Source of the DNA: Coriobacteriia bacterium | GTDB taxonomy: Bacteria; Actinomycetota; Coriobacteriia; Anaerosomatales; Anaerosomataceae | Assembly: GCA_034399355.1 (NCBI GenBank) | Contig: JAXMMT010000032.1 | Location: forward strand, 3,593-67,592 | Direction: 5' to 3' | Length of the DNA stretch: 64,000 nucleotides | Shown: one piece after another, positions 59,327 to 64,000 of the stretch | How the letters are laid out: each line of letters opens with the position of its first letter | How positions within the stretch are numbered: position 1 is the stretch's first letter | Translations under genes and position numbers: made by a program | The notes under the pieces: model-generated | Told to the model about the DNA's origin: nothing | Database searches by the model: none | Seen by the model: only the letters and a program-made list of their open reading frames with translations

Positions 59327-59402
59327 GGGGCCATAGCTCAGCTGGGAGAGCGCATGGCTGGCAGCCATGAGGTCAGGGGTTCGATCCCCCTTGGCTCCAC
59401 CA
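59327..59402 (+). tRNA. tRNA-Ala (anticodon GGC)
   Basis: 76 nt. Acceptor GGGGCCA/TGGCTCC with the G3:U70 Ala identity pair, anticodon stem CATGG/CCATG with loop CTGGCAG, T-arm AGGGG-TTCGATC-CCCCT, encoded CCA. Confidence 0.9.
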
Positions 59403-59423: not shown

Positions 59424-60476
59424 GTGCAAGAAAAGATGCCATTCGGCAGCGAGCGCTACGGTTCAGGTCTGATTTACGAAGAAGCCCATTCGAAAGAGTG
59501 GGCTTCTTCGATTTCTCGGCATCTGCAGCTTCCTTCTGATGGACAGCCGTTCGCACGTCGTACCCGAGAAGCGTGTCGAACGGTGGTGGAAGCCAACGAT
59601 CGCTCGTTCAGCGCCGATCAGTTCGCGAGGCTCAGACAGCGGGTCATCGCCCGCATGGCAACAGCCTTGCGCTATGCCTTTCGCGGGGATGGCGGGGAGG
59701 AGACTGCCTTCTCGGCGAGAGCAGGGCGAGCAGGGAAGCATCTCTATCGCTACGCTCAGCGCACAGTTCTTTGTATCGAGGCGTATGAGGCATGTTCACG
59801 ATGTGAGCAGGCTGCAGAGGGCGATGAGCATCGGGGACTCAGGGTCGTCCCAGCTCGAAGGACAATCTATAGCGACCAATCCCTGTGGATGTTCGTCCAT
59901 TGCATGAAGTATCTCCGAGAGATGAAGGCCGATCCGGCGGCTCGCGAGTACCTGAGGGAGCACGTGTCGATCGACTGGTGGGAGGTGGGGTTTCTCATAC
60001 TCGGCCAGGATGTCGGCGCGCGATTACAACAGACGCTGGCTGAAGATGAGAGTGATAACCCACGCACATTTGTGGGGCTCCTAAGCAAAGACCCCGATGG
60101 TGCGGCCATCAGTGAGGAATGGCTAGCGGTTCTAACCGGGCACTGGCTGGACAGGTTGCGCCACCCGGAAGCGGACGACTTCCCGCTTGGCGTGGACCGA
60201 CTTGGCCTGCTGGAGGATTTCCTGGAATTGTGCGCGGCCTTGCAGCATCTCTTCCCTGAAGAGACGCTTTCGACGCGCGAGGCCTTTTCGGGCTATCACG
60301 GAGCTGTCTTTGGGTTGGCCATTTGGGGACGCGCCGATGAGGGGGTGCAGTTCGCCGAGCAACACCGGAAGGGGGTCAAGCTCGTCAAGGATGCTCTCGA
60401 CAACCCGCCGCAGCGGTATGCCTCTCGCTCTCAAGAGGAGAAGGTCATTTGGGCTAGTAGTAGTCAATGGAGATAG
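59424..60476 (+). CDS. hypothetical protein, no recognisable domain (5' end uncertain)
   Basis: 350-aa track ORF from GTG 59424. Its first about 30 codons contain the tRNA terminator hairpin, so GTG 59583 or ATG 59655 are more plausible starts. Visibly lower G+C than the core genes. Confidence 0.45.
   Translation: MQEKMPFGSERYGSGLIYEEAHSKEWASSISRHLQLPSDGQPFARRTREACRTVVEANDRSFSADQFARLRQRVIARMATALRYAFRGDGGEETAFSARAGRAGKHLYRYAQRTVLCIEAYEACSRCEQAAEGDEHRGLRVVPARRTIYSDQSLWMFVHCMKYLREMKADPAAREYLREHVSIDWWEVGFLILGQDVGARLQQTLAEDESDNPRTFVGLLSKDPDGAAISEEWLAVLTGHWLDRLRHPEADDFPLGVDRLGLLEDFLELCAALQHLFPEETLSTREAFSGYHGAVFGLAIWGRADEGVQFAEQHRKGVKLVKDALDNPPQRYASRSQEEKVIWASSSQWR
59477..59510 (+). terminator. hairpin terminator downstream of tRNA-Ala
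   Basis: 12-bp perfect stem CGAAGAAGCCCA / TGGGCTTCTTCG with a 10-nt loop, then ATTTCTC. Confidence 0.6.
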
Positions 60477-60684: not shown

Positions 60685-60798
60685 ATGGCGCGTACGAGCA
60701 AGGCGAAGCAGGATAAGACACTTGATCAGAGGCTGCGGGAAGCCGCTGATGAACTGAGGGGCAATCAAGAGCCACTTGGCAGCATGGGGTGTAGATGA
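60685..60798 (+). CDS. 37-aa micro-ORF resembling the N-terminus of N6-adenine DNA methyltransferases (HsdM_N-like), overlapping the SNF2 gene start
   Basis: MARTSKAKQDKTLDQRLREAADELRGNQEPLGSMGCR. GGAG lies 8 nt upstream of the ATG, and the TGA overlaps the SNF2 ATG (ATGA). The L-x-x-x-L-[WR]-x-AAD-x-LRG pattern is as in HsdM N-termini. Below the ORF-track size cutoff. Confidence 0.35.
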   Translation: MARTSKAKQDKTLDQRLREAADELRGNQEPLGSMGCR

Positions 60799-63695
60799 GC
60801 CTCACTGCCTATCAGGCGAAGTATTACGCCCATGAACTTCAGCGTTCCTATGCGAACGACCACGTCGGCAAACTTGCAGGCCTTCTTTTTGACGCTCAGG
60901 TAGAACCGAAGCCGCATCAGATCGATGCGGCTCTGTTTGCATTACAAACCCCGTACCTCCCCGGTATAGTTCTCGCCGACGAGGTGGGCCTCGGTAAGAC
61001 CATCGAGGCAGGCATCGTCATCACTCAGTACTGGGCAGAGCGCAAGCGCCGCATTCTGATCATTACGCCCTCAAGCCTTCGCCAACAGTGGCAACAGGAG
61101 CTGTCTGAGAAGTTCCTGATCCCCAGCCAATTACTTGACCCCAAACTCAAGGATGAACAACTCGCCCGCACTGCCCAGCGTGGTGCTGGCGTGCTGATCT
61201 GCTCCTACGAGTTCGCCCTACGACATGAAGCCAGCCTGCTGCGCCAATGGGACTTAGTCATCTGTGATGAAGCCCACCGCCTGCGCAACTTCTACACTGG
61301 ACGCAACAAGGCTCCAGAGGCCATCAGCCACATCGTCCGTGAAGCTCACAAGACACTACTGCTCACGGCCACCCCATTGCAGAACCGCCTCGAAGAGCTC
61401 TACGGCCTCGTCAGCGTGTTTGACCCCAACTACTTCTATTCGCTAAGTGCTTTCCGTGAGCGCTACGTCAAGACTAAGGGCATCGGCGACAACGACGACC
61501 TGGTCGAACGTGTGGCTGCTATCACCAAGCGTACGTTGCGCAGGGATGCCGACAAGTACATCCACTTCACCAAGCGGCTGCCACTCACTGTGGAGTTCAT
61601 GCCAAGCCCCGAGGAGATCGAACTCTACGAAAGGGTCAACGACTACCTGCAACGCGAAGATCTGTTCGCGTTCTCCAACTCCCAGCGCCACTTGACGACG
61701 CTGATCATCCGCAAACGCCTCGGCTCATCCACCTACGCGGTTTCCAGCACTCTGGCGAAGATCGCCGACCGACTCCAGGCAGAACTTGATGCTGGTGTTC
61801 GCCGTGACAACCGTGGCGGCTTCATCATGGCTGATTTCATGGACGATGAACTGACTGATGAAGTACTCGAGGAACTAGAAGAAGGTAGCGCACCTGCTAT
61901 CAAGGGGACCCAGTTCGGTCCCGGTGCTGGCGAGCATCTGAGCAATGACACTCTCGAAGCCATGCGCGGCGAGGTCGCAGAGCTCCGGAGATACGCTGAG
62001 CTGGCCCGCAGCATCACGGTCAACCAAAAAGCCGTGAAACTCAACGAAGCTCTCGACAAGGGCTTTGAGCGCCTGCGCGAGCTCGGCGCACCAGAGAAGG
62101 CGATCATCTTCACCGACTCCACCAAGACTCAGGAGTACATCGCCCGCTCGCTCAGTGAGGCTGGTCGCAGCGAGGGCTTGGTCCTATTCAACGGTTCCAA
62201 CGGTTCGCCCGAAAGCAACGAGATCTACAAGAATTGGCTGAAAGCCAACAAGGACGGTGACGTCATAACAGGTATTCCGGCAGCCGACCGCCGCAAGGCG
62301 CTCGTGGATTACTTCCGCGACCACGGCACCGTCATGATTGCCACCGAGGCCGCAGCTGAAGGTATCAACTTGCAGTTCTGCTCGATGGTCGTGAACTACG
62401 ACTTGCCGTGGAACCCGCAACGTGTGGAGCAGCGCATCGGACGTGCCCACCGCTACGGCCAGAAGTACGACGTGGTGGTGGTGAACTTCTCAAACAAGGG
62501 CAACGTGGCCGAGGCCCGTATCCTCGAACTGCTGGCCACCAAATTCCGCCTGTTCGAGTCCGTCTTCGGTGCCAGTGATGAAGTGCTCGGTGCCATCGAG
62601 GACGGCTTCGACTTCGAGAAGATCATTAACAAGATCCTCAGCAGCTCTCGCAGTGACGCTGACATCGATCAAGCATTCAAAGCACTCGAGGAGCAGTACG
62701 CCACAGAGATCTCGACCGAGATGGCTGCCGCCAAGGCCAAGGTGTTCGACAACCTTGACCCAAACGTGCAAGACCGCCTGAAGGCTTACGACTCACAATC
62801 TGGCGAGGTACTCAACAAGTTCGAGCGCCTTCTGCTGGCGGTTACCAAGCTCCAGCTCGACCCCTATGCAACGTTCGAGGGCGATGGTCGCCACTTCGTG
62901 CTCAACAAGGCCCCGGTCAAAGATGCCAAGACGGGCCGCTACTACTTCAAGTCTGAGCCACTCGAAAATGCTCACCAATACCGCTTCGACAGTGATCTTG
63001 CTCGCTATGTCGTGGAGTCATCCAAGACCGCTGACACCCCGAGTAAGGAACTAGCCTTCAGCCTCAGCCAGTCGGAGCGTGCCAGCACCGCCGTGAAGGA
63101 ACTCGAAGGCAAGTCCGGCGAGCTGACTGTAAACATCGTTACCTTCTCGATGAAGGCCAAGAACGACGACATCAGCGAGTCCTACATGCTCGCCGGTGGC
63201 CTGACCGAAGACGGCCAGTGGCTCGACCATGAATACGTCGCCGACATTCTCGACCTGAACTGCGTCGATGAAGGCTCAGAAGTCACCATCGATGACTCCA
63301 AGTTCGAAAAGCGCCTGGCGGAGCGTCGTGAGCACTTAGAGAAGGAAGTCCAGGGCCGCAATTCCCGCTACTACGACCAGCAGGAAGAATTGCTCTACCG
63401 CAACCAACAGGATCGCCACGCTGAGTCCGAGGGCAAGATTCGGGAGTTCAAGTTGAAGGAGAAGGAAGCCCGCAAAGCTGCCAAGTGCACCGATGATCCG
63501 ATGGAACAGCTAAAGTTCAAGAAGAAAGCTCGTCGCTGGGCGGAGCGTGCCGAGGAAGAGGACGAAGAGGCACGCGTGGCTCGCAAGAAGATGCGCGAAG
63601 AGGCGGACCACTACCTCGAGTTGATCGAGCAAGCCCTCAAAGGGACTCAAGAGGTCGAACACTTGTTCACCATCCGCTGGAAGGTGGTCGCCTGA
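60795..63695 (+). CDS. SNF2/RapA-like superfamily 2 helicase with about 400-aa C-terminal extension
   Basis: Motif I LADEVGLGKTIEAG, motif II VICDEAHRLRN, motif III LLLTATPLQN, helicase-C motifs ATEAAAEGINLQ and QRIGRAHRYGQK. The C-terminus ends in a K/E-rich predicted coiled coil. Confidence 0.85.
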   Translation: MSLTAYQAKYYAHELQRSYANDHVGKLAGLLFDAQVEPKPHQIDAALFALQTPYLPGIVLADEVGLGKTIEAGIVITQYWAERKRRILIITPSSLRQQWQQELSEKFLIPSQLLDPKLKDEQLARTAQRGAGVLICSYEFALRHEASLLRQWDLVICDEAHRLRNFYTGRNKAPEAISHIVREAHKTLLLTATPLQNRLEELYGLVSVFDPNYFYSLSAFRERYVKTKGIGDNDDLVERVAAITKRTLRRDADKYIHFTKRLPLTVEFMPSPEEIELYERVNDYLQREDLFAFSNSQRHLTTLIIRKRLGSSTYAVSSTLAKIADRLQAELDAGVRRDNRGGFIMADFMDDELTDEVLEELEEGSAPAIKGTQFGPGAGEHLSNDTLEAMRGEVAELRRYAELARSITVNQKAVKLNEALDKGFERLRELGAPEKAIIFTDSTKTQEYIARSLSEAGRSEGLVLFNGSNGSPESNEIYKNWLKANKDGDVITGIPAADRRKALVDYFRDHGTVMIATEAAAEGINLQFCSMVVNYDLPWNPQRVEQRIGRAHRYGQKYDVVVVNFSNKGNVAEARILELLATKFRLFESVFGASDEVLGAIEDGFDFEKIINKILSSSRSDADIDQAFKALEEQYATEISTEMAAAKAKVFDNLDPNVQDRLKAYDSQSGEVLNKFERLLLAVTKLQLDPYATFEGDGRHFVLNKAPVKDAKTGRYYFKSEPLENAHQYRFDSDLARYVVESSKTADTPSKELAFSLSQSERASTAVKELEGKSGELTVNIVTFSMKAKNDDISESYMLAGGLTEDGQWLDHEYVADILDLNCVDEGSEVTIDDSKFEKRLAERREHLEKEVQGRNSRYYDQQEELLYRNQQDRHAESEGKIREFKLKEKEARKAAKCTDDPMEQLKFKKKARRWAERAEEEDEEARVARKKMREEADHYLELIEQALKGTQEVEHLFTIRWKVVA

Positions 63696-63750
63696 TGAAC
63701 GCTCTGTTCGAATATACAATATCTGGTAATATGATAAGAGGAAACATTCA

Positions 63751-64000
63751 ATGAGTAACGACGATTCACAAAACATCTACGAAACCCCAAGCACTACACC
63801 GAGCTTCAAGACGGAGCTTGCTGCGCAACTCTCGGAGCTGATTCCTGAGGCAATCGCCGATGGCAAGGTCGACATCGAGAAGCTCAAGGAGCTCCTCGGA
63901 GACGACCTAGGCGACGATCGTGAGCGTTTCGGTCTGTTCTGGCCGGGCAAGAAGCGCGCTCTGCGTGCGGCGCAGGATCCCACCACGGCGACCCTGAAGC
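63751..64000 (+). CDS. type III Mod-like (N4/N6) DNA methyltransferase, 5' partial (runs off window)
   Basis: Hand translation from ATG 63751 (RBS AAGAGG) gives MSNDDSQNIYETPSTTPSFKTELAAQLSELIPEAIADGKVDIEKLKELLGDDLGDDRERFGLFWPGKKRALRAAQDPTTATLK. The KLKxLLG...ER[FY]GLxWPGKxxA...P...TL pattern is the conserved Mod N-terminus. Confidence 0.75.
   Translation, partial: MSNDDSQNIYETPSTTPSFKTELAAQLSELIPEAIADGKVDIEKLKELLGDDLGDDRERFGLFWPGKKRALRAAQDPTTATLK

Follow-up and report, generated by a model that had tools for sequence, protein, structure and literature searches.

For decades, work on type III restriction-modification enzymes has treated them as machines of two subunits. The classical members of the class, EcoP15I and EcoP1I, form Mod2Res complexes and are encoded by two genes only. 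The locus described here lies at the end of a 64,000-nt stretch of DNA (the window) from a Coriobacteriia bacterium (contig JAXMMT010000032.1, positions 3,593 to 67,592) and encodes an SNF2 helicase with a RapA-like motor, followed by the Mod and Res proteins of a type III system. Mod and Res are homologous to their classical counterparts, carry the same motifs and are encoded by abutting genes in the same mod-then-res order, whereas the 966-aa SNF2 gene is a conserved third member. We estimate a probability of about 0.7 that this SNF2-Mod-Res arrangement is a three-gene variant of type III restriction-modification. The region as a whole is best explained as the beginning of a defence island that was gained by horizontal transfer and lies beside a tRNA-Ala gene, with SNF2-Mod-Res as its core.

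Comparison with described defence systems

Several described systems place an SNF2 protein beside an adenine methylase. In class 1 DISARM, the definition of which is taken here from 10.1101/2021.12.28.474362, deletion of drmD and drmMI weakens defence against one phage (10.1101/2021.12.28.474362). The present locus resembles class 1 DISARM in that an SNF2 protein, with a motor nearest to DrmD_b, lies ahead of an N6-adenine methylase, which presumably modifies an asymmetric site. The two differ in the methylase, which belongs to PF13659 in the case of DrmMI and to PF01555/MTase_III here, in the effector, which here is a type III Res in place of DrmA, DrmB and DrmC, and in the C-terminal domain of the helicase.

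ARMADA is composed of the SNF2 protein ArmA, the methylase ArmB, the YprA helicase-nuclease ArmC and the UvrD protein ArmD, and ArmA Walker mutants abolish protection (10.1101/2025.09.15.676423). Type 3 BREX and the BREX-related "BR" systems contain a BrxHII-type SNF2 protein and an adenine methylase. Both ARMADA and type 3 BREX share with the present locus a RapA-like SNF2 and adenine methylase pair that is joined to a separate effector, but their effectors (YprA-type helicase-nuclease, PglZ, DUF499 ATPase) and their methylases (PglX-like, DUF1156) are of other families. A further likeness is to ietHAS, in which a known two-gene defence system (ietAS) has gained an extra DrmD-like SNF2 helicase that is essential for protection (PMC13069673). 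In ietHAS, however, the partner of the helicase is a protease/ATPase pair and not a restriction-modification system.

The SNF2, mod and res genes

The window ends within mod. The missing downstream DNA comes from L001, sequence of a public 31.9-kb contig (SRR26726067_7276) that an exact-protein look-up of the helicase located in the Logan assembly of SRR26726067. The window and L001 overlap by 13,206 bases without a single difference, and L001 was taken as the same genome, with window coordinates equal to L001 coordinates + 50794. The three-gene unit comprises the following features:

60795..63695, plus strand: SNF2/RapA-like helicase gene, ATG start, 966 aa (Pfam, PADLOC and structural matches)
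63696..63750, plus strand: SNF2-mod spacer of 55 nt, with a Shine-Dalgarno-like AGAGGA ahead of the mod ATG
63751..64000, running off the window end, plus strand: first 83 codons of type III mod (PADLOC MTase_III, E 2.7e-14)
L001 12957-14834, plus strand: Mod, 625 aa (type III model, PDB matches, motifs)
L001 14836-17805, plus strand: Res, 989 aa (type III model, PDB match, motifs)

A first-pass annotation of the window, made from its sequence, had reported a 966-aa SNF2 helicase with intact motifs, and the open reading frame (ORF) at 60795..63695 bears this out: its product matches the Pfam models SNF2-rel_dom (E 1.5e-31) and Helicase_C (E 6e-18). All helicase motifs are intact (I, GLGKT65; II, DEAH158; III, TATP191; VI, QRIGRAHRYGQ546), and the motif residues are invariant across an alignment of 23 relatives with identities down to 37%. 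The start had been placed at 60685, but the ATG at that position opens a 37-codon ORF distinct from the helicase gene. The type III Mod N-terminus reported 55 bp past the helicase gene was confirmed, and the 83 codons of mod that fall within the window include ...RERFGLFWPGKKRALRAAQDPTTATLK. No terminator-like hairpin is present in the SNF2-mod spacer. Spacers of ~50-100 nt are typical of the 70 related loci that share the SNF2-Mod-Res order. Promoter and terminator scans gave counts at or below shuffled expectation.

The complete Mod protein matches the PADLOC MTase_III model with 644 bits across the full profile, and its Pfam and PADLOC matches are to PF01555 (N6_N4_Mtase) and MTase_III models only. 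In the PDB it matches Helicobacter pylori Mod (5e-89) and EcoP15I Mod (2e-66). Motif IV (DPPY125) precedes motif I (FSGSGTT410, of the form FxGxG), the order of the beta class. On these features Mod is assigned as an N6-adenine methyltransferase of the beta class and of the EcoP15I Mod family.

Res matches the PADLOC REase_III model end to end with 891 bits, as well as the Pfam models ResIII and RE_endonuc, and its match to EcoP15I Res (PDB 4zcf_C) has a value of 1e-54. The ATPase and helicase motifs GTGKT104, DEPQ226 and QTIGRGLR545 are kept, as is the nuclease signature PD923...ETK942. The protein scores 312 bits against the NCBIfam enterobacterial equivalog, below the cut-off of 564, as expected for a distant clade. 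Res is accordingly classed, from its domains and motifs, as a predicted EcoP15I-type SF2 ATPase with a C-terminal PD..ExK nuclease. The gap between mod and res is 1 nt (TGATATG), with mod first, and this arrangement recurs in related loci. The first-pass annotation had set the Res subunit of classical type III systems against an SNF2 protein; this was a false alternative, since the locus carries both.

Linkage of the SNF2 gene to mod and res

Linkage was assessed from both directions. A scan seeded with the SNF2 protein, in which each GTDB species was represented by one genome, yielded 71 loci. In 50 of these the homologue is full-length and is followed by 6.5 kb or more of sequence. Mod and Res were encoded downstream on the same strand in all 50. 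These 50 loci are mostly from Actinomycetota, and also from Fimbriimonas, Saccharibacteria, Gammaproteobacteria, Betaproteobacteria, Desulfobacteraceae and Planctomycetaceae. A metagenome scan seeded with Res yielded 80 loci at 58-93% identity, and SNF2 was present in 57 of the 61 that had enough flanking DNA. Two of the four loci without SNF2 are contigs that stop right after res and belong to a clade with a permuted gene order, one is too short, and one (L100) is a real absence.

The linkage extends to three Mod/Res subfamilies, as represented by the PADLOC REase_III models PDLC03647 (the subfamily of the present locus), PDLC03648 and PDLC03654. Distant full-length SNF2 homologues (39-43% identity) pair with a Res that matches PDLC03648 or PDLC03654. 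Across 83 loci the gene order is SNF2-Mod-Res in 70 and Mod-Res-SNF2 in 12, with the remaining locus a tandem or assembly repeat. In the Mod-Res-SNF2 loci the helicase gene starts 22-46 nt past res. This permuted order characterises a clade at ~58-60% identity (L131, L134, L135, L138, L140-L142, L144-L146, L148 and L150-L152).

The identities of SNF2 and of Res to the reference co-vary across loci (r = 0.85, n = 82), whereas neither the helicase nor Res co-varies with Mod (r = 0.45 and 0.25), the central target-recognition part of which has evidently been swapped. Other defence genes are nested within the unit, in the gap between SNF2 and Mod/Res or between Mod and Res, in L032, L045, L046, L053, L057, L059, L070 and L071, with the three genes remaining together. 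The nested genes encode GmrSD_N-RAMA, OLD-like AAA_15-TOPRIM, UvrD, Fic, AIPR/AbiU, RhuM, AAA_21 with DUF4276, and SMC-like ATPases.

Because the genes co-occur from both search directions, in both gene orders and in several subfamilies, and because SNF2 has diverged together with Res, we conclude from this comparative evidence that the SNF2 gene is conserved as part of the unit and does not sit there by chance. It is the co-conservation of the third gene (50/50 and 57/61 loci) that argues for a variant of the type III class over a plain member of it. The undescribed SNF2-linked restriction-modification architecture proposed in the first-pass annotation therefore survives in a weaker form, with the SNF2 gene co-conserved with Mod/Res but with Mod and Res themselves of the ordinary type III kind. 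That annotation had also named the combination that would speak against it, an ordinary res gene beside an SNF2 gene that is not co-conserved; the ordinary res is present, but the SNF2 gene is almost always co-conserved.

Full-length homologues (39-44% identity) are also found on conjugative IncF plasmids of Salmonella, Klebsiella and Escherichia coli. On these plasmids a small helix-turn-helix (HTH) gene, which overlaps the SNF2 start, is followed by SNF2, a methyltransferase gene and a gene annotated as "DEAD/DEAH box helicase" (Res). Examples are the Salmonella plasmid pR18.1595_113k (L153) and the E. coli plasmid pEC316_2 (L154; NZ_CP018955.1). The plasmid HTH gene recalls the controller proteins of restriction systems. 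In L153, an IS256 element and an Abi gene lie between SNF2 and the methylase gene. A homologue was found in 2 of 5,426 complete E. coli genomes and is thus rare in this species. A scan of a phage collection returned a relative on a single short unannotated contig.

Two further cases are of note for their cassette number. Micrococcales bacterium KH10 carries two diverged SNF2-Mod-Res cassettes on two contigs (L013 and L034), with helicases 74% and 69% identical to that of the window. In L022 (373-11701) the order is Res, SNF2, Mod, Res, with the 3' end of mod at the contig edge and both Res proteins equally similar to the query; either the cassette is tandemly duplicated or the layout is an assembly repeat.

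The helicase protein

The helicase consists of an ATPase core (~aa 30-600), which includes a low-confidence insert at aa 338-379, and a family-specific C-terminal region (~aa 620-966). RapA is the best match of the motor in both sequence and structure and its nearest solved relative (E ~1e-34), with a Foldseek template modelling (TM) score of ~0.5 for a full-length model that has a predicted local distance difference test (pLDDT) value of 80. The motor starts at ~aa 30, and aa 36 of the query aligns to aa 152 of RapA, so that the ~110-150 N-terminal residues of RapA are missing. The NCBIfam RapA score of the helicase is 168 bits, against a cut-off of 576. Besides lacking the N-terminal domains, the protein differs from RapA in its C-terminal domain and in its defence-island setting. 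BrxHII has been described as carrying a Tudor domain at its N-terminus and a restriction-endonuclease fold that is inactive; by comparison, a motor that begins at ~aa 30 leaves no room for an N-terminal Tudor domain here, and the C-terminal model is without a PDB match.

In that model, of aa 620-966 (pLDDT 86.7), the C-terminal region folds as two long helices, an alpha/beta domain, an antiparallel coiled-coil hairpin of ~110 residues and a final strand that rejoins the sheet. A Foldseek search of the model against the PDB gave no match below E 0.33, and returned coiled-coil noise only. The C-terminal 307 residues match 347 cluster representatives (E <= 1e-3), and among full-length hits the domain forms the C-terminus of proteins of 940-1190 aa in all but one case (1480 aa). 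The invariant columns of the region (F9, I20, F82, L84, Y97, L116, F136 and G156) include no acidic or basic residue, so that no catalytic signature is kept there. No Pfam domain was found past aa 555 of the helicase. As judged from the invariant columns and the Foldseek search, we see no nuclease or other catalytic site in the C-terminal region, and we suggest that it is an interaction module. An SNF2-nuclease fusion of the Hma or ZorD type (NOV_C, Mrr-like) was considered and rejected, since the PADLOC HmaA and ZorD models match the helicase core only and the C-terminal region has no charged invariant columns and no structural match.

Among profiles of defence proteins, the best PADLOC match of the helicase is PDLC02619 ("DrmD"), with 585 bits over the core only. 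The protein scores 583 bits against the NCBIfam model DISARM_DrmD_b (cut-off 950), with only the motor core at aa 30-677 aligning, and 248 bits against DISARM_DrmD (cut-off 610). A Thermomonas homologue (43% identical), which sits in a type III locus, scores 682 bits against PDLC02619, above the 585 bits of the window helicase. Because this homologue scores higher and yet belongs to a type III locus, the "DrmD" label is no evidence of DISARM.

Proposed role of the helicase

A functional role of the helicase within the restriction system is, in our view, quite likely. By extension from type III enzymology, Mod2Res would hemimethylate an asymmetric site in the DNA of the host. Where invader DNA is unmethylated, ATP would switch Mod2Res to sliding, and cleavage would occur when two inversely oriented unmethylated sites communicate. 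The SNF2 protein would be an ATP-driven translocase on double-stranded DNA with no nuclease of its own; because its gene is linked to mod and res and it has no effector domain, we infer that it works with Mod/Res and not alone. The C-terminal alpha/beta and coiled-coil domain would provide a docking surface. RapA recycles RNA polymerase. By analogy, and only tentatively, the likeliest task of the SNF2 protein would be to clear protein obstacles from the DNA, or to remove or recycle Mod/Res complexes that have stalled or have completed cleavage. Either activity would result in higher restriction efficiency or in less self-damage.

Several observations weigh against these proposals. The functional link is drawn wholly from gene neighbourhood. 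L100 encodes a Mod-Res pair of the same clade, and neither the 3.7 kb upstream of this pair nor the 2.6 kb downstream contains SNF2; Mod/Res can therefore persist without the helicase. Conversely, the SNF2 gene of L032 has a GmrSD-RAMA gene after it and no Mod/Res over 5.6 kb. The helicase gene is also the more loosely coupled, since 50-100 nt separate SNF2 from mod, whereas mod and res are directly adjacent. EcoP15I and other canonical type III enzymes function with two subunits only, and the basic chemistry thus does not require the helicase. Lastly, a remodelling or recycling role would be modelled on RapA, the N-terminal domains of which are missing from a protein with a matchless C-terminal domain.

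Alternative explanations

Defence genes cluster without cooperating, and the SNF2 gene might be an independent defence gene or a hitchhiker that shares islands with type III systems and has no functional tie to them. L100 and L032 would be expected under this explanation, as would the greater length of the SNF2-mod spacer relative to the mod-res junction and the presence, in several loci, of other genes between SNF2 and Mod/Res. We nevertheless regard it as unlikely, given the near-total co-occurrence in both directions, across phyla, three subfamilies and two gene orders, and the co-divergence with Res. Linkage is also far above that of ordinary island neighbours: the AAA_13, DUF2130 and KTSC genes that follow res in L001 are variable neighbours, found in 9, 6 and 2 of the 83 related loci, respectively. 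Nor does the helicase have a nuclease or effector domain suited to one-gene defence, unlike HmaA or ZorD.

The SNF2 protein could instead act on transcription as RapA does, either by timing or tuning expression of the restriction genes or by blocking phage transcription. Its closest solved relative, in structure and sequence, is RapA, it is encoded by the first gene of the operon, and on the enterobacterial plasmids a small HTH gene lies ahead of the SNF2 gene, the arrangement of restriction systems with a controller protein. This explanation has low probability in light of the missing RapA N-terminal residues and the score far below the RapA cut-off, as well as a C-terminal domain that Foldseek finds unrelated to that of RapA and a co-divergence that is with Res.

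The 5' end of a class 1 DISARM locus (DrmD, DrmMI, DrmA, DrmB, DrmC), as proposed in the first-pass annotation from the drmD-drmMI-like order of helicase and adenine methylase and in keeping with the DrmD names of the best PADLOC and NCBIfam models, is extremely improbable, as the helicase falls below both DrmD cut-offs and matches in the motor core only, its C-terminal domain is different, the methylase is of PF01555 and not PF13659, a full Res follows 1 nt after mod, and no match to DrmA, DrmB (DUF1998) or DrmC (PLD) was found among six downstream genes that cover all but the last 3.9 kb of the contig, which lie outside the data.

The downstream genes of L001 also include no YprA-type helicase (ArmC), PglZ or BrxC, and neither a DUF499 ATPase nor a PglX-like or DUF1156 methylase is encoded in L001. 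ARMADA, the BR systems and Hma were rejected as identities for the locus, their required partners being missing from it.

Genomic context of the unit

The features that flank the three-gene unit are as follows:

59327..59402 (L001 8533-8608), plus strand: tRNA-Ala(GGC) (ARAGORN; Rfam tRNA, 65 bits)
59889..60476, plus strand: ORF between the tRNA and SNF2, 195 aa (longest reading 59424-60476, 350 aa)
60685..60798, plus strand: 37-codon ORF, a 5' relic of type I hsdM (MARTSKAKQDKTLDQRLREAADELRGNQEPLGSMGCR), the stop of which overlaps the SNF2 start (ATGA)
L001 17805-20465: AAA_13 ATPase, 886 aa (PADLOC candidate PDC-S06, 528 bits)
L001 20489-21787: DUF2130 protein, 432 aa (307 bits)
L001 21799-22011: KTSC protein, 70 aa (Pfam KTSC)
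L001, after the KTSC gene, opposite strand: small HTH-like gene
L001, after the small HTH-like gene: AbiEi-like gene, start only

The GC content is 0.62-0.65 before the tRNA-Ala gene and falls to 0.55-0.60 from there to the end of L001. The lower-GC island that holds the system has its left edge at the tRNA gene, where this drop occurs. Neither an integrase nor a repeat of the tRNA-Ala 3' end was detected in the 22.9 kb covered by L001. The ORF at 59889..60476 has no significant match in Pfam, PADLOC or NCBIfam and is absent from 151 related loci; it is probably island cargo outside the conserved unit.

The 37-codon ORF immediately ahead of the SNF2 gene reads ...TLDQRLREAADELRGNQEP followed by LGSMGCR. 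It consists of an hsdM-like portion (…LREAADELRGNQEP) and then of unrelated residues, and the junction between the two is shared with L002 and L027. A tblastn search located the same piece upstream of SNF2 in L002, L027 and L066. The copy in L066 is longer and continues as a canonical HsdM N-terminus, and on this basis the ORF was identified as an hsdM relic, in preference to a leader or regulator. The relic suggests that a type I hsdM gene once received the cassette by recombination, and this remnant may supply a promoter and translational coupling for the operon.

On the other side of the unit, res overlaps the AAA_13 gene, which is separated by 23 nt from the DUF2130 gene, and this in turn by 11 nt from the KTSC gene. 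The AAA_13 ATPase has a Walker A motif at 117 and a Walker B motif at 667. As these three genes are variable neighbours of the unit, the AAA_13-DUF2130-KTSC string is probably a separate accessory defence module.

Implications for type III systems

No description of a unit of SNF2 with type III Mod and Res was found in the searchable literature, in which subscription journals and REBASE notes are thinly covered. Public records annotate the helicase family as "SNF2-related protein" and PADLOC annotates it as "DrmD", a label that can yield false or partial DISARM calls. Neither the components of the unit nor the pairing of a helicase with a methylase is new to defence systems; what stands out is the strong linkage of a third gene to a classical two-subunit enzyme. 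That the third gene persists through changes of phylum, gene order and subfamily implies a function not yet studied, be it in restriction, self-protection or counter-counter-defence. The three-gene unit would be the simplest setting in which to learn what RapA-like helicases do beside adenine methylases, with the advantages of a well-understood nuclease partner and of homologues on plasmids of E. coli and Klebsiella.

A more speculative possibility, to which we give less weight than to its absence, is that these loci form a widespread class of type III enzymes in which the SNF2 protein is a true third subunit that docks via its C-terminal domain and alters the action of the enzyme. Such a subunit could, for example, drive active translocation, so that cleavage would no longer require two head-to-head sites. 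It could also strip DNA-protecting or anti-restriction proteins of phages, or recycle a Mod/Res complex that is otherwise single-turnover. If this were true, the SNF2-methylase pairing of class 1 DISARM, ARMADA and type 3 BREX would gain a common, testable function, with the type III unit as its simplest case.

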